NCBI RefSeq assembly: GCF_900096915.1
Contig: NZ_FMYK01000002.1
Coordinates: 32,808 to 64,807 of the forward strand
Length of the DNA: 32,000 nucleotides
From: Acinetobacter marinus
GTDB taxonomy: Bacteria; Pseudomonadota; Gammaproteobacteria; Pseudomonadales; Moraxellaceae
Direction: 5' to 3'
The notes under the pieces: model-generated
What the model was told of the DNA's origin: nothing
The model's input: only the letters and a program-made list of their open reading frames with translations
Databases searched by the model: none
Shown here: in pieces, positions 4,447 to 12,681 of the stretch
Layout: each line of letters opens with the position of its first letter
Position numbering within the stretch: the first letter of the stretch is position 1
Made by a program: the position numbers and the translations under genes

Positions 4447-4640
4447 CTTAGATTCTCAAATGAAGTGCAACAGAGATTAAATTATTGGAAGGAAGCAAGA
4501 TGAGCTAGCATTGTGCTTCCGACCGACCAAAGTCAAAATTGCATTCATGAACTATACTCATCTCACTCTTGAAGAAAGATATCAGATTTATGTTTTGTTA
4601 CGTGAAGGTTTTTCTAAGCGTCATATTGCCTCGTTTCACT
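4447..4640 (+). mobile_element. Truncated IS30-family element, left end (terminal repeat plus first ~30 codons of the transposase)
   Basis: The terminal motif CAAATGAAGTGCAACAG (4457-4473) resembles, from memory, IS30/ISAba125-type inverted repeats. It is followed by a transposase HTH fragment. Confidence 0.55.
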
Positions 4641-4696
4641 GCTGTGCGGTGGGAATCTTGCAAAATATATTTTTCATGGTTGATGTGTGGATTTGA
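4547..4696 (+). pseudogene. IS30-family transposase, N-terminal HTH fragment only
   Basis: MNYTHLTLEERYQIYVLLREGFSKRHIA matches the conserved N-terminal HTH of IS30-family transposases. Similarity is lost after about 30 aa, with a stop at 61 aa and no DDE domain. Confidence 0.6.
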
Positions 4697-4846
4697 GTGG
4701 AGATTCGTTAGGAATAGGCTATCGATAGTCTGGCATTTCGACTGTGTTTTCTTATTTTGATTCGAGTCTTTACCAGCTTGTTTAATAGGTTTCAAAGATC
4801 TGATTTATTTAAAATTCTTATTTTTTGGCATTGCCATCCTAAAATG

Positions 4847-4879
4847 AAAAAAGCCCATATCAATAGATATGGGCTTTTT
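4847..4879 (-). terminator. Rho-independent terminator, presumed original terminator of the tRNA-Glu operon
   Basis: Stem AGCCCATAT/ATATGGGCT with a 6-nt loop, flanked by A and T runs. It lies directly 3' (minus strand) of the tRNA-Glu 3' fragment. Confidence 0.7.
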
Positions 4880-4931
4880 AGAATTTGGCGTCCCTACGGG
4901 GATTCGAACCCCGGTTACCGCCGTGAAAGGG
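4880..4931 (-). repeat. attL: displaced 3' 46 nt of tRNA-Glu plus 6 nt downstream; direct repeat of 12457-12508
   Basis: agaatt+TGGCGTCCCTACGGGGATTCGAACCCCGGTTACCGCCGTGAAAGGG is identical at both sites. Sequence diverges after the core (ggcgtgatcg versus cgatgtcct). Confidence 0.9.
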
Positions 4932-4946
4932 GCGTGATCGAGTTGC

Positions 4947-5801
4947 TTAATAGTTTTGTAAACTTTTGTAATTTTGCGTTAAAATTGGCAGGGCGTTTAA
5001 ACATTCGTGCAAATTATCAGGCGCTAAGTGCGCATAGCATTGTGTTATGCGTGTATCTGAATGCCCCAGCAATTGTGAAACGTGGTAAAGCGGTACACCC
5101 TGTTTTATTAGAAAACTTGCAAAAGTGTGGCGTAAGTCATGGATTCTAACTTTGCCAATATCGGCACGTTCAACAGCACTAGAGAATCGTTTATAGAATG
5201 TTCTATAGTGATCATCGGTTTTTTCATTGTAAAACACCCATTTTTTGTGGTTTCTCATTCTGAGTAGGGCAGTAATTGCAGAATCATTTAGCGGTTTATA
5301 AACAGTCTTTTCATTCTTAGAAAGTGAATTTCTAACTATTAAATAACGATCATTTAAATAGACATTGTCCCAAGTCAATTTAAGCAGCTCACCCGACCTA
5401 CACCCTGTATTCAATAGCAGCAATATATAATCATGTAGGTAAAAATTACCGAATCGTTTTGACTCAGTGAGAAGTTTTGAACATTCCGAAGCATTCAAAA
5501 ATCGTGGGATGTAATCATCTTCAAAAAGTCGAAATCCATTAAATCTGTTTTTAAAATTCGCATCGTCTTTGTGTTTTAAGTAGTAATTGAATGCCGAGCG
5601 AATAACATTTAATTCCCGATTGATTGTACTATTCTTTACCCCAGAAGATCGGCGATACAATACATATTGATGCAAGATTTCAATTGTGATTTCATCGAAT
5701 TGATAAAAATATTCCAAGTGTTTAAATTTTTCTAAGTATTCATGATCAGATTCAAACAAGCCATTAATTGCATAAAATTTCAGAATTTTTTTAATATCCA
5801 T
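4947..5801 (-). CDS. int: Tyrosine recombinase / phage integrase (284 aa)
   Basis: Catalytic signature is present: TGCRSGE (Arg), HDLRHTFAS (H-x-x-R), LLGHSD (His), TQCYAHL (Tyr). The stop lies 15 nt from the att core. Confidence 0.88.
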   Translation of the reverse strand: MDIKKILKFYAINGLFESDHEYLEKFKHLEYFYQFDEITIEILHQYVLYRRSSGVKNSTINRELNVIRSAFNYYLKHKDDANFKNRFNGFRLFEDDYIPRFLNASECSKLLTESKRFGNFYLHDYILLLLNTGCRSGELLKLTWDNVYLNDRYLIVRNSLSKNEKTVYKPLNDSAITALLRMRNHKKWVFYNEKTDDHYRTFYKRFSSAVERADIGKVRIHDLRHTFASFLIKQGVPLYHVSQLLGHSDTRITQCYAHLAPDNLHECLNALPILTQNYKSLQNY

Positions 5802-6122
5802 AATATAAGCCTTTGTTAATATTGAATTTTATTTGTAGCAAAAAGCAAAAGCAAAAGCAAAAGCGGAATTCAGCGAGGGTGTATGGGCGAAAATTTTGCA
5901 CGTCACTCGTAGACACTCGTTAAAGAATATATTCGAGTGAGCAGGGGCGTGATGATGGCGAATCGACAAACTCGCTTTGTTAGCGAGCTTGTGAAAATCA
6001 AAGATTTTCAAGTTAACTTTGAAATTTAGTGTTCTATAAAAACGACATATGTAACAAGCAGGGCAAAAACCATGGAGGTTAAACAGTCAAGATAGCCGAT
6101 CCAATAATATATTTGTGCATAT

Positions 6123-7328
6123 TTATCCAAATCCATGATTTAACTCCCCTGTTTGTTGGGGTTGTGACCGTTGATATTCTTGCGTAATACGCTGATATTC
6201 TTGGAATTTTGCATATTCATTCAAAGAAATCTGCGCAGGATTTTGTTGACTAGATAGCGGACTATTGCCCGAATTATTGCTTTGAGCATAAGTAAAATTC
6301 TCATTTGAGTTAACTTGTTTGAATGGGTTAAACGGCTTGTCACCATTCATATATCGCTTGCAATCAGTTTGTGAAATGTCTAAACGTGTCGCTTGCTGTG
6401 AGTAGCATGTACATTTTTTATCGATGATTGCGCAACCTGATAATTGCGGTACTTGTTGTACTTGGTACTGGAAAGCTGTGTAGTCAATGTCATACGGTTT
6501 ATTAACATTGTATTTCATGAGTTGTTCACGGTTATACTCAAGTTGTTTATTAAAATCAGCCCTGCGTTGTTCTTCTGTGCGATCATCAAGTCCGCCAAAG
6601 CCTTGCGGTTCATTAATTGACACAGATGACGCTTGCGATTCAACAACTTTTTTACCGCTTGCGTGATCATAGTTATCTTTGATTTTGTGTGCAGATAAAA
6701 AAGGGTTATTTGAGCCAAAAACCATATATAAGATCAATGCAATGACAGCAAGCAAGAATCCGCCTAATTTCCAATATAAAACAGGTACTTTAAGTTTATG
6801 TGTGTCAATCGTCGTGGATTGATAATTATCGAATAATTTTGATTCAGGTTTAAATTTTTCGTGTGATTCTGCTTTATTTTTTGCACCCGTTGAGTCAGGA
6901 GAATGTGATGTATATCGCCATAAAAACACATCAGCATATGAACGACCATAGGCACGGTGCAAGTGATAATGCTCACCAACAAGGCTTAGAACATGGTTGT
7001 GCAAGAAGCTCGGCGATTGTGTAACAAGGATAATGTCATAGCCTTGATGACGATGAGTTTCTAAACCCTTTACACGTTGATCACTAGAGAGCTTTTCACG
7101 TCCTTTGTACTGTAAGAAATCAAATTGCTGGGCTTCATCATAGATAACAACGGATCCGTGAGGACAATCAGCCCAATCAAGAGATTCGGGGAGCTTTTGA
7201 ACGCCCTCATAGTCGAAATTGTCGATATTTGTATAGACTGGACGACCTTCTTTGACAAAGCGCATGGCATCGCTCACAGCTTTGGCAGTTTTAAATGAGC
7301 CGGGTTTGCCAGTATAGAGCTTAAGCAT
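6123..7328 (-). CDS. zot: Zot-family P-loop NTPase, filamentous-phage assembly protein (pI-like)
   Basis: N-terminal Walker A GKPGSFKT, IYDEAQ Walker-B-like motif, a central TM segment (GGFLLAVIALILYMVFG), and the expected position after the pVI-like gene. Confidence 0.85.
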   Translation of the reverse strand: MLKLYTGKPGSFKTAKAVSDAMRFVKEGRPVYTNIDNFDYEGVQKLPESLDWADCPHGSVVIYDEAQQFDFLQYKGREKLSSDQRVKGLETHRHQGYDIILVTQSPSFLHNHVLSLVGEHYHLHRAYGRSYADVFLWRYTSHSPDSTGAKNKAESHEKFKPESKLFDNYQSTTIDTHKLKVPVLYWKLGGFLLAVIALILYMVFGSNNPFLSAHKIKDNYDHASGKKVVESQASSVSINEPQGFGGLDDRTEEQRRADFNKQLEYNREQLMKYNVNKPYDIDYTAFQYQVQQVPQLSGCAIIDKKCTCYSQQATRLDISQTDCKRYMNGDKPFNPFKQVNSNENFTYAQSNNSGNSPLSSQQNPAQISLNEYAKFQEYQRITQEYQRSQPQQTGELNHGFG

Positions 7329-7402
7329 TTTTTATCCTCCAGCGCCCGCGCCATGCGTTACATGTGCGAGGAAGCGCACACGGTACGCACAGCGCAGGCG
7401 CA

Positions 7403-7684
7403 TCATGTGAGTTTCTTCAATGAAACAGAGCTAGCAACAATAGTTGCACGAGCAATTAAAGCGCCGATCACAATAGATATGGCAGTATCTACGCCCGAGA
7501 TTGAAAGCAAACCCAAATATGTTGGATCTACTGAATTTGATGCATTGATTGCTTTATTAATAAATGCGGTCAGTATTGATTGAATGATTGCGCTTGATAC
7601 AATTGCAACACCAGCGCCCAATAGCACTTTTTTAGCAAAATTGGATAAGAGCCAAGAACCGAGCATAAATAATAAACGTGGCAT
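7403..7684 (-). CDS. Small membrane protein, pVI-like minor coat protein (DUF2523-like)
   Basis: 93 aa with hydrophobic segments. Its start overlaps the stop of the pIII-like gene (TAATG). The position between the pIII-like gene and zot is as in inoviruses. Confidence 0.6.
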   Translation of the reverse strand: MPRLLFMLGSWLLSNFAKKVLLGAGVAIVSSAIIQSILTAFINKAINASNSVDPTYLGLLSISGVDTAISIVIGALIARATIVASSVSLKKLT

Positions 7685-9045
7685 TATCTCATTCCTAAAA
7701 TAATGTAAGCGCCAGCAAAATAGGCACAGGCAATAATTGCCCAGCGGAGCTTAGAAAGTAATTCACACCAAGGCGACCACGACAAAGTTAGCGTTGAGGA
7801 TTGACCCATCAAGTTAATGTGTACATTTTTATCTGCTGGACATTGTGACGACCAAGAAACATAGTTATTTTCATAGTCACCTACTGTATGTTCCTGTATT
7901 TCTGCTGTACCGTTTTCACTGAAATCGACACCCGAATCATCTTTAAGCCAATCATCAATAGATTGGATTTTGTCGTTTGTTTCTGTTTGCAAGTCTTTAA
8001 TATCATTTAAATTTTGATTTGATTGATCTAATTTTTCATTAGTCTGATCAAGTTTTGCATTAGTTTGATCAATGCCATTTTGAACAGCATCTAACTTTGT
8101 ATTCGTTGTATCTAAACGTGAGTTTGTACCATCGATTTTTGAATTGACCGTATCAAGTTTTGAATTAGTTTGTGCTGTATTTGATTTTATATCAGCAGTG
8201 TTTTGTGCTGTTTGTGCTGTATTACTCGCAGTTTGAGCTGTGTTATTTTTTACATCATTTAAACGTGCATTCGTTGTATCGAGCTTTGAAGCAACTTGAT
8301 TCACTGCTGATGTAATTGCAGAACTTGCAGAATTAACAGCATTGGTAATGGATGTTTTTGCGTTGTTGACTGCTGTGGTTATTGCAGAAGATGCGTTGTT
8401 TACTGCGCCAACAATGGAAGATGAAGCATTATTGATTGCTGAGATAATGCCCTCAGAATCCATTGTATTACAGTTATTTGTGCCATTACATGAGCCGTCA
8501 CCAGTTCCGTCAGGTGGTTGATTTGGGTCTGTTGGGTCTGTTGGGTCTGTTGGGTCTGTTGGGTCAGTTGGGTCAGTTGGCGGATTAGGGTTTTCAGGAG
8601 TACCCATATTTGTATCTACTTCACAAGTGTTGCCCGTGGATTCATAAGTTCCACCCCATTCGTTGTCATCAAAAGACATTGATGATAATTGTGTGTATTC
8701 ACAGCCTGAATGACAAAACAAGTCAGGCATAGATGAACCATAGTAAGGCTCAAACCATTCCTCATTACCTGCCTCACATTGACTAGGAACATAAGTAAGA
8801 TTGAAAGAAAACCAAACTGAACCACCAGGATAAAGGGCATTTAACTTAGTATGTGTGGAATCTGTGTCTTCAAATGTGCATGAAGCAACGTTAGAACGGT
8901 TAGCTTTAACTGCGGAACACCATTCTTCTTTTGTTTTATATTCAGTTACACCGTTAGTATATGCACCTGTACCAGTCCAACCAGCGAATACAGAATTTGA
9001 GATAAATAACAAAGAAATGAAAATCAAATATTTAAAGTATTTCAT
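7684..9045 (-). CDS. pIII-like adsorption/minor coat protein with PTD linker and long coiled-coil-like repeats (453 aa from the Met at 9045)
   Basis: Signal peptide MKYFKYLIFISLLFISNSVFA; Cys-rich N-domain; (PTD)x6 linker; 11-aa and 7-aa repeat blocks; C-terminal TM anchor WAIIACAYFAGAYIILG. The start was moved from 9096 to the Met preceding the signal peptide. Confidence 0.7.
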   Translation of the reverse strand: MKYFKYLIFISLLFISNSVFAGWTGTGAYTNGVTEYKTKEEWCSAVKANRSNVASCTFEDTDSTHTKLNALYPGGSVWFSFNLTYVPSQCEAGNEEWFEPYYGSSMPDLFCHSGCEYTQLSSMSFDDNEWGGTYESTGNTCEVDTNMGTPENPNPPTDPTDPTDPTDPTDPTDPNQPPDGTGDGSCNGTNNCNTMDSEGIISAINNASSSIVGAVNNASSAITTAVNNAKTSITNAVNSASSAITSAVNQVASKLDTTNARLNDVKNNTAQTASNTAQTAQNTADIKSNTAQTNSKLDTVNSKIDGTNSRLDTTNTKLDAVQNGIDQTNAKLDQTNEKLDQSNQNLNDIKDLQTETNDKIQSIDDWLKDDSGVDFSENGTAEIQEHTVGDYENNYVSWSSQCPADKNVHINLMGQSSTLTLSWSPWCELLSKLRWAIIACAYFAGAYIILGMR

Positions 9046-9119
9046 TATTTCACCATCAAAGTTATTGTGATCGTAAAAACAATGACAATGAGCCAATTTG
9101 CAATGTGAACAGTGTCCAT
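9045..9119 (-). CDS. Possible 24-aa hydrophobic peptide (MDTVHIANWLIVIVFTITITLMVK), translationally coupled to the pIII-like gene
   Basis: AGGGGA RBS lies 4 nt upstream of the ATG. The stop overlaps the next ATG (TAATG). It is too short to be in the ORF track, so the call rests on my own translation. Confidence 0.3.
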   Translation of the reverse strand: MDTVHIANWLIVIVFTITITLMVK

Positions 9120-9151
9120 GTCATCCCCTGAAATTGTTTAAATATTTGAAT

Positions 9152-9173
9152 TAAAAGAGGGGGCGAACCCCCT
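9152..9173 (-). terminator. Rho-independent terminator after the major coat gene
   Basis: GGGGG-TTCG-CCCCC hairpin followed by TCTTTT on the minus strand, immediately 3' of the coat gene, as after gene VIII in Ff phages. Confidence 0.75.
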
Positions 9174-9180
9174 ACTTTTT

Positions 9181-9438
9181 TTATCGTGCAGCTGCTCGAA
9201 GATTACGCCAAATTGCAATACCCGCAGTAAAGCCGAGCCAAGCAACACCGATCGTTGCAGCAGCAGTAACAGCAAGACCAAGATTAGAAACGATCTCAGT
9301 CACATCATAGTCAGCAAAAGCGGAGGTTCCCGCAGTTGCAACAACTGCACCCGCACCGATTTTGTTTACAATGCGTTGTAAACGTGGATATTTTTGTTCT
9401 TTAGCAGTGTGAACAGTCACTTGTGTTTTTTTATCCAT
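9181..9438 (-). CDS. Major coat protein (pVIII-like)
   Basis: Leader ends in AFA. The predicted mature part DYDVTEIVSNLGLAVTAAATIGVAWLGFTAGIAIWRNLRAAAR has an acidic N-terminus, a hydrophobic core and a basic C-terminus. Confidence 0.75.
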   Translation of the reverse strand: MDKKTQVTVHTAKEQKYPRLQRIVNKIGAGAVVATAGTSAFADYDVTEIVSNLGLAVTAAATIGVAWLGFTAGIAIWRNLRAAAR

Positions 9439-9631
9439 GAGATGATTCCCCTATTTTGGATAATTTTCGAAATACAGCTCCAGTGATGATAACCAGTGCA
9501 ATAGATGCACTAATAACAACAGCTTGAGCCATTGTGATGCCAAGCAGATCATTTATTGTGATTTGCTCGACCCATACGGCGCATGTAGCGACATTGTTTT
9601 GTACGGTCAATTGCTCGCATACATACGCCAT
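9431..9631 (-). CDS. Small membrane protein (66 aa), phage structural module
   Basis: One TM segment (AQAVVISASIALVIITGAVF). Overlaps the coat gene start by 8 nt. No family recognised. Confidence 0.5.
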   Translation of the reverse strand: MAYVCEQLTVQNNVATCAVWVEQITINDLLGITMAQAVVISASIALVIITGAVFRKLSKIGESSHG

Positions 9632-9633
9632 AT

Positions 9634-9732
9634 TTAATGACCTCTTAAAAATTTGAGCGTTGCTTTATACACACAATAAATGTGTGCAATAACGCCAATT
9701 AATAAGAAGTACCAAACTGCATATATGATCAT
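9634..9732 (-). CDS. Possible 32-aa hydrophobic protein (pVII/pIX-like size): MIIYAVWYFLLIGVIAHIYCVYKATLKFLRGH
   Basis: My own translation. It is packed with 2-3 nt gaps between the neighbouring ORFs, and its size and hydrophobicity resemble Ff minor coat proteins. Confidence 0.35.
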   Translation of the reverse strand: MIIYAVWYFLLIGVIAHIYCVYKATLKFLRGH

Positions 9733-9735
9733 AAT

Positions 9736-9840
9736 TTAGTCATCACAATATTTTTGATGTTTTTCTAAATCTTGTTTAGATACAAAATCTTGATCACATC
9801 GTGTACATGTGAATAGTGTTCGTTCCCATTGATAAATCAC
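9736..9840 (-). CDS. Possible 34-aa C2HC zinc-finger-like peptide: (V/M)IYQWERTLFTCTRCDQDFVSKQDLEKHQKYCDD
   Basis: The GTG start overlaps the stop of the ssDNA-binding gene (GTGA). The C-x2-C-x12-H-x3-C spacing was read directly. The ORF fills an otherwise unassigned gap. Confidence 0.3.
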   Translation of the reverse strand: MIYQWERTLFTCTRCDQDFVSKQDLEKHQKYCDD

Positions 9841-10142
9841 GGTTTTGCCTGTTGTGACGTTTTTGGCACAGGAACAACATCAAGAATAATCGTGGTCATT
9901 GCTTTACCATTGGAAACCTGTTGCATAACAACATCGGCAAGCAATGGCGATTCATGTTTATTCAGTTTTTCAATGTTTGAAGAAAGCCCCCAGCGCATTG
10001 ATTCGCCGACTTGACCCCAGTAATTTGCACCCTCAGGTGTGTCAGCTTGGAAAAACACCTCAGTGTAATCGTATGTATTCCCTTGGAATTCGCCCTTTGA
10101 AGCACGAGCGCCCAAGATTACAAGTTGAGTTTTAAATTGCAT
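9837..10142 (-). CDS. Putative ssDNA-binding protein (pV-like), 101 aa
   Basis: Assigned by size and by its position immediately after, and overlapping, the replication gene. No diagnostic motif recognised. Confidence 0.5.
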   Translation of the reverse strand: MQFKTQLVILGARASKGEFQGNTYDYTEVFFQADTPEGANYWGQVGESMRWGLSSNIEKLNKHESPLLADVVMQQVSNGKAMTTIILDVVPVPKTSQQAKP

Positions 10143-11640
10143 TTATGAATTCCTCATAGATTGGTTTTTCAAAGTTGTAATCAGCACCAACGAATAAAGG
10201 GAATTCGTCAGCAAATGATTTTTGGATAGGTTGATTGGTACAAATTGCTTGATGAACCGCAGCCATTGAAAACTGTAAACGCTTCGGTACTTCGTCTTTA
10301 TCAGATGAAAGCAAGCGAATTAATTCGCTTGGTTCGATGTATTTCGCAAAATGGCGCATATACTTACCGAATTGATGCTTCATGATTGAAATTGCTTTCA
10401 ATTCATTGATTTTGCTTTGCTTTTTAACAATTTCCAATTTTGTCGGTAATGCATAATCACCAAGTTTTTCGATTAAAAGACGAAATGCAGGGTATGCACC
10501 TGAAAAATAATCAGTTGGATTCAACAAAATATCCAAAGGGATATGGGCTTGTGTCGCTTTAAATTCGATTTCTGCACGTACCCACGGAGACATATTGTCG
10601 CCCTCTTTTTTGCCACGTTCATAAATGCGGGCAAACTTATAACTGGTACGATCACCAATTGTTAAGGTACGTCCTTTACCTGTGATACGTTTCCAGTTAC
10701 CTAAATGGTTAACCTCAGGAGGGCGACCACCTGAGAAAAACAACCCAGCATCGTCCCATTCGTCAGCCAACTCCGTAGTTATAAATTCGCCCTCGAAGTC
10801 ATCAAAAGCCAAGTCGACACGGTTTAATTTTGCTTTTCTTGCTTGATCATGGAGAAAATCATATAGGCGTTCATTCCAGCCAAGACGTGCCAGTGAACAG
10901 CCTGAGCCGTTTATCTGCACTGCAATACGGCGTGATTTATGACCATATAAAACCATGCCCAAATTATCTTGTAATTCATAGGCGCATTGATACCAGTGCA
11001 TGCCTTTATCACGTTTTTTACCTAATCCGAAACCGAACATTTCAAAAAGCCACTGGTCAAGGTGCGTTTCAATAGCATCGGTCAATGCTTCGATATTGTG
11101 TTGAGGGTCAATAAATGAATATTTTTCACCAAAAGTGGATTGGCAAAAACTGAATGTTACCCAGTCGTGACCTACATCCTGACCCTGAACGGGCACACAG
11201 CAAAGCACTGGCACAACGCCTTGAGGAGTTGAAATTAATTTGTGATTGTCCAAATGCCGAGGAAATGCGTATTTTTCAGATTGCGGGTACTCATCCTTTT
11301 CCCCCATATTATAAATTGGGGGAAATTCACGGTGATTTACTATGTGTTTTTCACACGTTTTGGATAAATTTTGTACAAAAGATTGCTGGATTGAATGGTC
11401 AGGAACATATGCAATTTTTTTCGATAATTCAGAATCAAACTTTTTCAGTTTATTGATAAATATGCCATCGAGCATATTTTTTAAGGTCAGCGAATCATTG
11501 GCAGTAATGTCACCAAATGCAGTCAATGCATGAATTTCTTCATCAAGCGCCGTTTTTGCTTTAAACACGTGAACAGCATTAGGGGCGATTTCATTATCGA
11601 AATCTTTAATCTGCTCGATGATCTTAAATAGTGGATTCAT
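10132..11640 (-). CDS. Rolling-circle replication initiation protein (pII/RstA-like, Rep_trans-type)
   Basis: 502 aa. The block LNRVDLAFDDFEG...IYERGKK...AEIEFK resembles the replication-initiation factor family of filamentous phages. It sits at the head of the long operon. Confidence 0.7.
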   Translation of the reverse strand: MNPLFKIIEQIKDFDNEIAPNAVHVFKAKTALDEEIHALTAFGDITANDSLTLKNMLDGIFINKLKKFDSELSKKIAYVPDHSIQQSFVQNLSKTCEKHIVNHREFPPIYNMGEKDEYPQSEKYAFPRHLDNHKLISTPQGVVPVLCCVPVQGQDVGHDWVTFSFCQSTFGEKYSFIDPQHNIEALTDAIETHLDQWLFEMFGFGLGKKRDKGMHWYQCAYELQDNLGMVLYGHKSRRIAVQINGSGCSLARLGWNERLYDFLHDQARKAKLNRVDLAFDDFEGEFITTELADEWDDAGLFFSGGRPPEVNHLGNWKRITGKGRTLTIGDRTSYKFARIYERGKKEGDNMSPWVRAEIEFKATQAHIPLDILLNPTDYFSGAYPAFRLLIEKLGDYALPTKLEIVKKQSKINELKAISIMKHQFGKYMRHFAKYIEPSELIRLLSSDKDEVPKRLQFSMAAVHQAICTNQPIQKSFADEFPLFVGADYNFEKPIYEEFINAI

Positions 11641-11641
11641 G

Positions 11642-11893
11642 TCAGCAATCCCCCATGTTTTCTTGTAATTCTTTGTTGGCTGCCTTATATGTTTCTAGGT
11701 ATGCATCAATTAATGAATGATCATAAGACCATTCGTAACAGACCAGCGCCAAGTGAGATAAGCATTTTTGCGTTGAAAAAGCGGGTACAAATGCGTCCAA
11801 TGTTGGGCGACCATGATCAGAAATGATTTTGGCGATGTCATTGAAAGCAGATTGCAAATATTCTTGTCGTGTTTGAAATATTATTTGTGCCAT
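11642..11893 (-). CDS. Hypothetical phage protein (83 aa)
   Basis: The ORF is tightly packed between orf68 and rep. No family recognised. Confidence 0.45.
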   Translation of the reverse strand: MAQIIFQTRQEYLQSAFNDIAKIISDHGRPTLDAFVPAFSTQKCLSHLALVCYEWSYDHSLIDAYLETYKAANKELQENMGDC

Positions 11894-12100
11894 TTATGCC
11901 ACCACTGGGAGGGAGCCAAGTTTTTTCTTGATGCGATCTAAAGACCTAGGTTGATCAATACCATCTATAAAACGGCACTTATGAGCAAAAGTAGATTTCT
12001 GAACGTATTCTTTGAAATACTTTTGGCGCAATTCATGAGAATCAGCATTAATAATGCTTTTTTCGAGTTCTCGAAGTTCAGAACGAATTTGATTCTTCAT
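11894..12100 (-). CDS. Hypothetical phage protein (68 aa), first gene of the leftward operon
   Basis: Basic, charged small ORF directly abutting the next gene. Its position suggests a regulator or Cro-like role, which is inference only. Confidence 0.4.
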   Translation of the reverse strand: MKNQIRSELRELEKSIINADSHELRQKYFKEYVQKSTFAHKCRFIDGIDQPRSLDRIKKKLGSLPVVA

Positions 12101-12133
12101 AAAAAGCCCCTTGATATTTTTGGTATTTGGTTT

Positions 12134-12204
12134 TACCGTTCACGGTATTAACTTACCCAATTGGATAAATATCCATATGGGTAATCTAACTATCCATTTG
12201 GATA
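12134..12204. promoter_or_regulatory. Divergent promoter/operator region with three palindromes
   Basis: TACCGT-TC-ACGGTA (12134-12147); ACCCAATTGGATAAATATCCATATGGGT (12155-12182, core TGGATA-AA-TATCCA); TATCCA-TT-TGGATA (12191-12204). The region lies between the divergent repressor gene and the rep operon. Confidence 0.55.
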
Positions 12205-12222
12205 AAATCAAGAGGGCGAATT

Positions 12223-12519
12223 ATGAATAAAGAGCTAGTTGATCTGATTGATCGTGCAAGATGGAAAGCAGGAAGCTATAAAGCTGTAGCAGAAAAGATG
12301 GGAATTACAGCAGGAAGATTATCGGATTTTAAACATGGCAATAGAACGCCATCGACATTAAATATTTGTCAACTTGCTGATATTGCTGAACTAAATGTAG
12401 CAGAAACTTTGTTTCAGATATTAGAAAAGCTCGACACTGATCATGCCGAGCTTTGGAGAATTTGGCGTCCCTACGGGGATTCGAACCCCGGTTACCGCCG
12501 TGAAAGGGCGATGTCCTAG
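12223..12519 (+). CDS. HTH (Cro/CI-type) phage repressor; last ~20 codons read into the tRNA-Glu/att core
   Basis: The HTH-like segment SYKAVAEKMGITAGRLSDFKHG, an AGAGGG RBS, and divergent orientation to the rep operon. The C-terminus WRPYGDSNPGYRRERAMS is encoded by tRNA sequence. Confidence 0.6.
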   Translation: MNKELVDLIDRARWKAGSYKAVAEKMGITAGRLSDFKHGNRTPSTLNICQLADIAELNVAETLFQILEKLDTDHAELWRIWRPYGDSNPGYRRERAMS

Positions 12520-12538
12520 GCCTCTAGACGATAGGGAC
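12463..12538 (-). tRNA. tRNA-Glu (anticodon TTC); its 3' 46 nt form the attR core
   Basis: The reverse complement GTCCCTATCGTCTAGAGGCC...CTTTCAC...GGTTCGAATCCCCGTAGGGACGCCA folds as a cloverleaf. Confidence 0.92.
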
Positions 12539-12605: not shown

Positions 12606-12681
12606 TGGCGTCCCTACGGGGATTCGAACCCCGGTTACCGCCGTGAAAGGGCGATGTCCTAGGCCTCTAGACGATAGGGAC
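12606..12681 (-). tRNA. tRNA-Glu (anticodon TTC), second identical copy
   Basis: Same 76-nt sequence as 12463-12538. Confidence 0.92.

Follow-up and report, generated by a model that had tools for sequence, protein, structure and literature searches.

The 32,000-nt stretch of Acinetobacter marinus DNA analysed here (the window; contig NZ_FMYK01000002.1, positions 32,808 to 64,807) carries at 4880-12508 an element that we read as an intact, integrase-encoding inovirus prophage inserted in a tRNA-Glu gene, with a circular genome of 7,577 bp; we would put the probability of this reading at about 88%. The element is bracketed by an exact 52-bp direct repeat (52 of 52 positions identical), each copy of which holds positions 31-76 of tRNA-Glu, i.e. 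the 46 nt of its 3' end (two bases of the stem, then the anticodon loop and the remainder of the tRNA), together with 6 nt of downstream sequence (AGAATT, + strand). An initial annotation of the window had proposed such a repeat around some 7.6 kb, with the left copy being a displaced tRNA fragment still attached to the original terminator and the right copy completing an intact tRNA-Glu, and all of this is borne out by the features at the two ends:

4848-4879, minus strand: host terminator of the tRNA-Glu operon, a 14-bp stem then a T-run that adjoins the left repeat copy (4879-4848) and is now parted from the tRNA by the prophage
4880-4931: attL, the left repeat copy, a displaced 46-nt 3' fragment of tRNA-Glu plus 6 nt
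12457-12508: attR, the right repeat copy, which gives the 3' part of the functional tRNA-Glu (exact repeat, ARAGORN)
12463-12538, minus strand: intact tRNA-Glu(UUC), the integration target (ARAGORN)

The integrase family targets the segment of tRNA-Glu that runs from the anticodon loop to the 3' end. The phage has its own copy of the tRNA 3' end and the 6 nt, and on integration this copy rebuilds a complete tRNA at attR, the original fragment keeping the terminator at attL. The G+C content of the element is 38.3% versus 41.8-43.1% in the flanks. The locus is also present in A. marinus assembly GCA_042649845.1, and its replication initiator (Rep) is 100% identical to an NCBI A. marinus protein.

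Between the repeats all 14 open reading frames (ORFs) are intact and tightly coupled, with junctions of the form TAAATG, TGAcATG, GTGA and TAATG and overlaps of 8, 11 and 14 nt; true gaps are found only in three places, namely between pVI and Zot, ahead of int, and behind the coat gene, where a terminator lies at 9173-9158. The packed, translationally coupled minus-strand genes in the order of an inovirus that had been claimed for the element, and the lack of a secretin gene, were both upheld, with no ORF matching a secretin family, and the families named for a check with hidden Markov models, those of Zot, Rep, integrase, DUF2523 and the coat, were each matched. From left to right the leftward genes are:

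4947-5801, minus strand: tyrosine integrase (int), 284 aa; PF00589 6.5e-31, phrog_1 1.8e-51
6026-6136, minus strand: orf36, a small hydrophobic ORF of 36 aa that overlaps the end of Zot by 14 nt
6123-7328, minus strand: pI/Zot morphogenesis ATPase, 401 aa; PF05707 3.2e-19, phrog_197 2.5e-65
7403-7684, minus strand: pVI-like minor coat protein, 93 aa; PF10734 DUF2523 3.9e-13, phrog_1242 5.3e-16
7684-9045, minus strand: pIII-like adsorption protein, 453 aa; NF041109 VF_TspB_C_term 4.6e-18, 65 bits against a cutoff of 24
9181-9438, minus strand: pVIII-like major coat protein, 85-aa precursor; PF05356 Phage_Coat_B 1.6e-11, 44.5 bits against a cutoff of 23.5
9431-9840, minus strand: three small ORFs of 66, 32 and 34 aa, two of them hydrophobic (in a pVII/pIX-like position) and one with a C2H2-like motif
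9837-10142, minus strand: 101-aa protein in the gV/RstB position; phrog_4994 8.5e-24 (function unknown)
10132-11640, minus strand: rolling-circle replication initiator of the Rep_trans/RstA type, 502 aa; PF02486 4.4e-22, phrog_453 4.3e-92
11642-12100, minus strand: orf83 and orf68, with which the leftward operon begins; orf83 is phrog_20873 (4e-41)

The integrase abuts the left repeat, where the initial annotation had placed it, and when aligned to the solved integrase 5c6k (E=8.5e-16) it conserves TGCRSGE, HDLRHTFAS, LGHS and CYAHL, with the catalytic R..HxxR..H..Y residues in place. Rep matches the solved Rep 4cij (E=4e-9) and by tblastn records of the CTXphi genus. The 101-aa protein that follows Rep had been labelled as binding single-stranded DNA (ssDNA); its position is as stated, whereas the function finds less support. 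No Pfam or NCBIfam match was obtained for it and a profile search against solved structures gave nothing useful, and its AlphaFold2 (AF2) model (pLDDT, the per-residue confidence score, 66) has OB-fold ssDNA binders as its top Foldseek matches, albeit weak ones (E ~0.05, TM score 0.45-0.54), making an ssDNA-binding function plausible.

Relatives of the element were recovered by an alignment-based scan for Rep, single-protein Rep patterns having recovered none. The phage record collection contained no close match, the best Rep being 33% identical and coming from gut inoviruses, with more distant matches to phages of the CTXphi genus and of Ralstonia, and no Acinetobacter inovirus with this Rep was found in it. 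At 51-58% identity, members of the Rep family are frequent both in IMG/VR and among Acinetobacter genomes, and two uncultured relatives have a Rep of 81% and 70% identity. The elements are mosaic, with the identities of the replication, structural and lysogeny modules differing from relative to relative. Duplications of tRNA-Glu flank the relatives in A. guerrae, A. corruptisaponis and Acinetobacter sp. Axc73, whose integrases are 65-78% identical; in these three there are ~8.5 kb between the copies, and the distal copy is followed by a sequence resembling a host terminator. One IMG/VR entry, whose integrase is 74% identical, begins at the tRNA-Glu core and has a single copy of it on the contig. 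Relatives in A. soli have an integrase of 42% identity and a 45-bp core from tRNA-Arg(CCG) that starts at the anticodon loop, and therefore integrase clade and tRNA target co-vary. One of the A. soli-type contigs (L005) was not taken as evidence for a circular form, as its 15-nt terminal overlap is what is expected of a unitig bounded by a 45-bp repeat at k=31.

Metagenome contigs were scanned with a query for the empty site (attB) made up of the terminator, AGAATT and a whole tRNA-Glu, and the predicted attB was found exactly in four of them (L107-L110). The terminator at 4848-4879 directly follows an intact tRNA-Glu in these contigs, as the initial annotation had anticipated for an unoccupied locus, with 96.7% identity over 4842-4931, and three of the four are syntenic with the right flank of the element (thioesterase, parC and beyond; 81-92% identity) without the 7.5 kb. 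When the empty site was sought through exact matches to the host proteins of the flanks, nothing but the same strain or contigs broken at the tRNA repeat came back.

ARAGORN identifies tRNA-Glu(UUC) twice on the minus strand (12463-12538 and 12606-12681), and with two tandem genes adjoining the element it could be supposed that the left repeat is a leftover of a tandem tRNA-Glu array and that the phage genes entered by another route, such as XerCD/dif or a transposase, as the Af phages of A. baumannii are reported to do with an IS110-type transposase or host recombination (PMC11209303). We give this next to no chance. The AGAATT of the repeat differs from the sequence downstream of the second tRNA-Glu copy, and the left repeat copy is therefore not a leftover of the array; furthermore, the exact empty site contradicts both the leftover and the other route of entry, the integrase adjoins the repeat with no transposase inside the element, and the co-variation of integrase clade with tRNA target (Glu or Arg) extends across species. 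Two 240-kb records labelled 'Acinetobacter phage MD-2021a', CAKLQF020000004.1 and CAKLQH020000003.1 (L104), also have a tRNA-Glu followed by AGAATT and then a hairpin terminator; they resemble bacterial chromosome (cusA, zitB, gltX, tRNA arrays) and appear to be mislabelled.

Forms of related elements that have the phage attachment site (attP) were also found. The attP of this element was reconstructed as 12136-12456, the 52-nt core and 4932-5600, and a 1,006-bp contig of a different run (L106) is colinear with it over 1,000 nt at 77.8% identity, with an identical core in the same position. A second contig of 7,986 bp (L105), in which the first 24 nt equal the last 24 nt, is circular or tandem and has a helix-turn-helix (HTH) gene and int converging across the core. 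The junction of 12456, core and 4932 that had been proposed for the excised circle is thus seen in relatives.

It is at this junction that the element has its more useful feature. The HTH gene is the one gene that runs rightward, divergent to the replication and structural operon, and it spans attP:

12223-12519, plus strand: XRE-type HTH regulator, prophage form, 98 aa; its stop codon TAG (12517-12519) comes from the body of the tRNA
4932-5149, plus strand: tail antisense to int, the extension of the HTH gene in the excised circle (from the reconstruction of attP)
12101-12222: divergent control region between the HTH gene and orf68, with palindromes TGGATAaaTATCCA at 12162-12175 and TATCCAttTGGATA at 12191-12204

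A divergent HTH repressor abutting attR had been described in the initial annotation; the divergent HTH gene is there, but instead of abutting attR the ORF crosses all 52 nt of the repeat and stops three codons further on, inside the tRNA, ending in …ELWRIWRPYGDSNPGYRRERAMS before the stop. The HTH domain matches PF01381 (HTH_3) with 1.3e-4 and 22.4 bits against a cutoff of 23, is modelled by AF2 with a pLDDT of ~90, and has structural matches to the N-terminal domain of lambda cI, to P22 c2, SinR and ImmR. In the reconstructed circle the same frame runs for 72 codons past …RRER, antisense to the 3' end of int, and would give a protein of 167 aa rather than 98 aa. As the regulator gene spans attP, the prophage encodes a 98-aa protein with a tRNA-derived end and the free circle a 167-aa protein.

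In-frame read-through of the core is common to the tRNA-Arg group and to all the relatives at tRNA-Glu, for which HTH protein identity is only 44-73%, and in the attP forms the HTH gene and int are convergent with an antisense overlap of 70-200 nt. The public HTH proteins fall into two length classes, one of 95-98 aa with the tRNA-derived peptide end, mostly on large contigs, and one of 130-167 aa, mostly on small contigs; tail lengths are +35, +39, +59 and +72 codons. Distant members of the XRE family (proteins P0193-P0281), recovered from other bacteria in an exhaustive HMMER search, align only up to the residue at which the core begins, and in at least 30 of them the terminal peptide is typical of translated tRNA genes, of which at least five kinds are represented; judging from these ends, the att-spanning layout may be widespread in this family of regulators. 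In many of the distant homologues the HTH domain is followed by a hydrophobic 'RAAGVAA…' helix. In the control region the two 14-nt palindromes have the common half-sites TGGATA and TATCCA, and these sequences may be operators, as may a further palindrome, ACCGttcaCGGT, at 12135-12146.

The codons of int argue that the tail frame is more than an accident of the junction. When the synonymous codons of int were resampled in seven related sequences, a tail at least as long as that observed was obtained with P=0.002 for this element and P=0.0008-0.018 in six of the seven; for the seventh (L010) P was 0.46. An antisense stop can arise in the tRNA-Glu clade where an int codon of the form xTT, xCT or xTC is followed by one beginning with A. 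None of the seven dicodons at risk in this element forms a stop, and the rare isoleucine codon ATA is used at both of its isoleucine positions at risk. Across the clade 27 dicodons at risk lie in the stretch of int that the tail overlaps and none of them forms a stop, whereas 108 of 207 do so elsewhere in the gene; every isoleucine at risk is encoded by ATA, which accounts for 9.5% of the isoleucine codons in the window. The tRNA-Arg clade overlaps in a different relative frame, where TTA, CTA and TCA are the sources of stops, and such leucine and serine codons are likewise avoided (0 of 8 in the overlap, 17 of 34 upstream). The tail frame is free of stops over its first 60 codons in five of the seven sequences, compared with 16-25 stops in the int-antisense stretch that follows (up to 285 codons; ~210 in the partial L106), and the two remaining antisense frames contain 2-8 stops across the sequences (5-8 in this element) over that initial stretch of 60 codons. 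The seven sequences are related, so these counts are not independent of one another; the integrases are, however, no more than 42-78% identical, and synonymous codons do vary at the constrained positions, for example CTA, TTG or CTG before ATA.

Against this it can be argued that read-through past attP is a by-product without function, the regulator being the same in both states and the core lying in the 3' end of its gene through compactness alone. The differing tail lengths would fit such an explanation, as would the low AF2 confidence of the tail, the lack of a recognisable C-terminal degradation tag (an ssrA-like end) in the long HTH forms, and the tail of L010 that is no longer than expected by chance; any conservation of the tail sequence is also accounted for by int on the opposite strand. 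What this explanation does not account for is the avoidance of stops, 0 of 27 against 108 of 207, with ATA at every isoleucine at risk, its recurrence in a clade where the two genes overlap in another frame, and the 2-8 stops that the remaining antisense frames have over the same stretch. There is a sizeable chance that it is correct nonetheless, somewhat over one in three. On codon usage, the tail frame looks selected, being kept open by the choice of codons in int in two integrase clades.

The reading of the element as an intact prophage has several points against it. The HTH_3 score of the regulator falls just below the Pfam cutoff, the ssDNA-binding label of the 101-aa protein, plausible as it is, depends on a model of moderate confidence with weak matches, and a scan for sigma-70 promoters remained at background (25 found, 26.8 expected from shuffled sequence), so that none is assigned. 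To the left of 4842, beyond the terminator, the flank is not syntenic with the empty-site contigs, which have unrelated genes there, so the ancestral locus of this strain was not recovered. This strain's own assemblies contain no attP contig, and the proposed junction, although present in L106 and L105, was not seen in the strain itself; the evidence is genomic, and nothing in it shows excision, replication or particles in this strain. An IS30-type HTH_38 fragment (IS, insertion sequence) lies at 4511-4696, between a lipoprotein gene and attL, and the break in synteny is possibly IS-mediated.

The element might accordingly be regarded as a defective, domesticated remnant that no longer excises or makes particles and whose genes persist since the insertion is recent. 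Public assemblies offer neither an attP contig nor a long-form HTH protein from this strain, and the exact Rep is found in one strain lineage only, both of which a remnant would explain. It would explain less well why 14 of 14 ORFs are intact and tightly coupled, why the repeats are identical at all 52 positions, why the integrase has its catalytic residues, and why related elements occur as circular or attP forms, and we consider a remnant improbable.

As an intact prophage, the element would be expected to follow a life cycle that can be put together from its gene families and from other inoviruses. The excised double-stranded circle would be nicked by the Rep_trans initiator, single strands would be coated by the 101-aa OB-like protein, and these would be extruded through the pI/Zot ATPase complex with the addition of pVIII, the pIII/TspB-like protein, pVI and the small hydrophobic proteins. 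As the phage has no secretin, the outer-membrane channel must come from the host and would be borrowed from it. The host type II secretin gene gspD lies with gspC and gspN ~2.3 kb beyond the left edge of the window (L102, 16714-19026); it is one candidate for the exit channel, and its closeness to the prophage is probably coincidental.

The remaining features lie in the gaps between the leftward genes:

5802-6025, minus strand: non-coding spacer of 224 nt that separates orf36 from int and contains (GCTTTT)n repeats and a GCGAG hairpin
7342-7401, minus strand: GC-rich hairpin between pVI and Zot (DNA minimum free energy -27.6 kcal/mol, z=-6.35)
9158-9173, minus strand: terminator or attenuator after the major coat gene, AGGGGGTTCGCCCCCT then a T-rich tail

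The GC-rich spacer between pVI and Zot is 74 nt long and forms a long hairpin on the coding strand, and at the same junction eight relatives have hairpins of -22 to -28.5 kcal/mol that are unrelated in sequence. By analogy with the Ff phages, a reasonable guess is that this is a packaging signal or the origin of the minus (complementary) strand. The spacer upstream of int has a hexamer tandem repeat, GCTTTT four times on the minus strand, at 5841-5865; its overall fold is not significant (z=-1.5), and it is possible that it contains the end of the morphogenesis operon and the int promoter. The adsorption protein is made up of a signal peptide, a (PTD)n linker, coiled-coil repeats and a TspB-type C-terminal anchor; the linker is encoded by a 9-nt tandem repeat at 8522-8575, and pIII of Ff phages has glycine-rich linkers in that position. 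Amongst the small genes, orf83 is kept in relatives at 45-81% identity, orf68 has no homologue in them, orf36 has no family match and orf66 matches phrog_9110 (4.9e-07). The 34-aa ORF (9736-9840, minus strand) with its C2H2 zinc-finger-like motif scores 23.3 bits for zf-C2H2, under the Pfam cutoff of 25.2, and tblastn found no copy of it in the relatives.

With this element a well-delimited Acinetobacter inovirus is added to a lineage known so far mainly from catalogue entries, in which attL, attR, attB, a predicted attP, a candidate packaging hairpin and candidate operators can all be read. The prophage type itself is ordinary, as the family is already catalogued in IMG/VR and inoviruses commonly lack a secretin, and those that encode an integrase and reside in tRNA genes are established from the Pf phages (PMC7549136) and from gamma-Proteobacteria (PMC12715192). 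More is to be learned from the regulator across attP. The frame antisense to int is held open in two integrase clades, each with its own tRNA target, and free and integrated genomes must therefore encode different regulator proteins; that the 98-aa and 167-aa forms would differ in activity is a further step.

Amongst known filamentous phages the Pf phages of Pseudomonas aeruginosa (Pf4, Pf6 and others) are alike in having their own tyrosine integrase, a tRNA 3' fragment as attP, a repressor at one end and no secretin gene; they integrate in the tRNAs for Gly, Met and Sec and in tmRNA, with the integrase type tracking the target (PMC7549136). This element differs from them in its Rep_trans/RstA-like Rep, in having int distal to the intact tRNA and in that no excisionase was recognised in it, and a regulator spanning attP with an antisense overlap of int is not described for the Pf phages in PMC7549136. 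CTXphi and other Vibrio inoviruses resemble it in the divergent HTH repressor, the Rep_trans-type initiator, Zot as the pI homologue, the lack of a secretin and the small OB-like protein after Rep (a weak match to 'RstB-like protein'). CTXphi exits through the type II secretin of its host. It has no integrase and depends on the host XerCD at dif (PMC12715192), whereas here there is an integrase and a tRNA target.

Within the genus, the Af phages of A. baumannii are also ~7 kb, with a zot-coat-adhesin core and both prophage and episomal forms (PMC11209303, PMC12285184), but they are reported to use an IS110-type transposase or to form tandem arrays via host recombination, and a tyrosine integrase or tRNA target is not mentioned for them (PMC11209303). 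The phages MDAphi and Nf of Neisseria likewise have a TspB C-terminal domain in the adsorption protein and no secretin, and differ in that, as far as they are covered in PMC11209303, they integrate by a Piv/IS110-type transposase and not by a tyrosine integrase at a tRNA. CRAphi of A. baylyi ADP1 (Renda 2016) is reportedly a filamentous phage of Acinetobacter of ~7 kb that likewise has a zot-coat-adhesin core and exists as prophage and episome, and it is likened to this element by description alone. Taking the tRNA-targeted integrase together with the regulator across attP, a parallel can be drawn outside the filamentous phages.

That parallel is with the mycobacteriophages BPs, Brujita and Charlie, in which attP lies inside the repressor ORF and integration removes a C-terminal degradation tag (PMC3694055, PMC4557955). 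The likeness includes the attP core within the regulator gene, as found here and in the tRNA-Glu and tRNA-Arg relatives, viral and prophage forms that differ, a protein that is shortened by integration, a tRNA target and a tyrosine integrase beside attP. The mycobacteriophages are, however, tailed double-stranded DNA phages of Actinobacteria, their inactive viral form bears a degradation tag, none being recognisable here, and their stable prophage form confers immunity; their rep and int genes are co-oriented and co-transcribed from the repressor promoter, a defining feature of those systems, where the two genes here converge with an antisense overlap. Because this defining feature differs and the functional features lie beyond sequence, the element is not filed as a member of the integration-dependent immunity systems, and a full-text search of a limited literature collection returned no relevant paper on a filamentous phage with an integration-dependent repressor and attP. 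A tentative idea, which we hold to be rather unlikely as it stands, is that the phage senses its own integration, a tail of 35-72 residues being swapped for an 18-residue end encoded by the tRNA and the regulator thereby being switched in activity or stability. If this were true, integration-dependent immunity would extend from the tailed phages to an ssDNA phage of a Gram-negative host, and it could explain a silent prophage on the one hand and a productive episome on the other; if the two forms do differ in activity, a chronic, non-lytic phage would have a simple, built-in means of discriminating episome from prophage.

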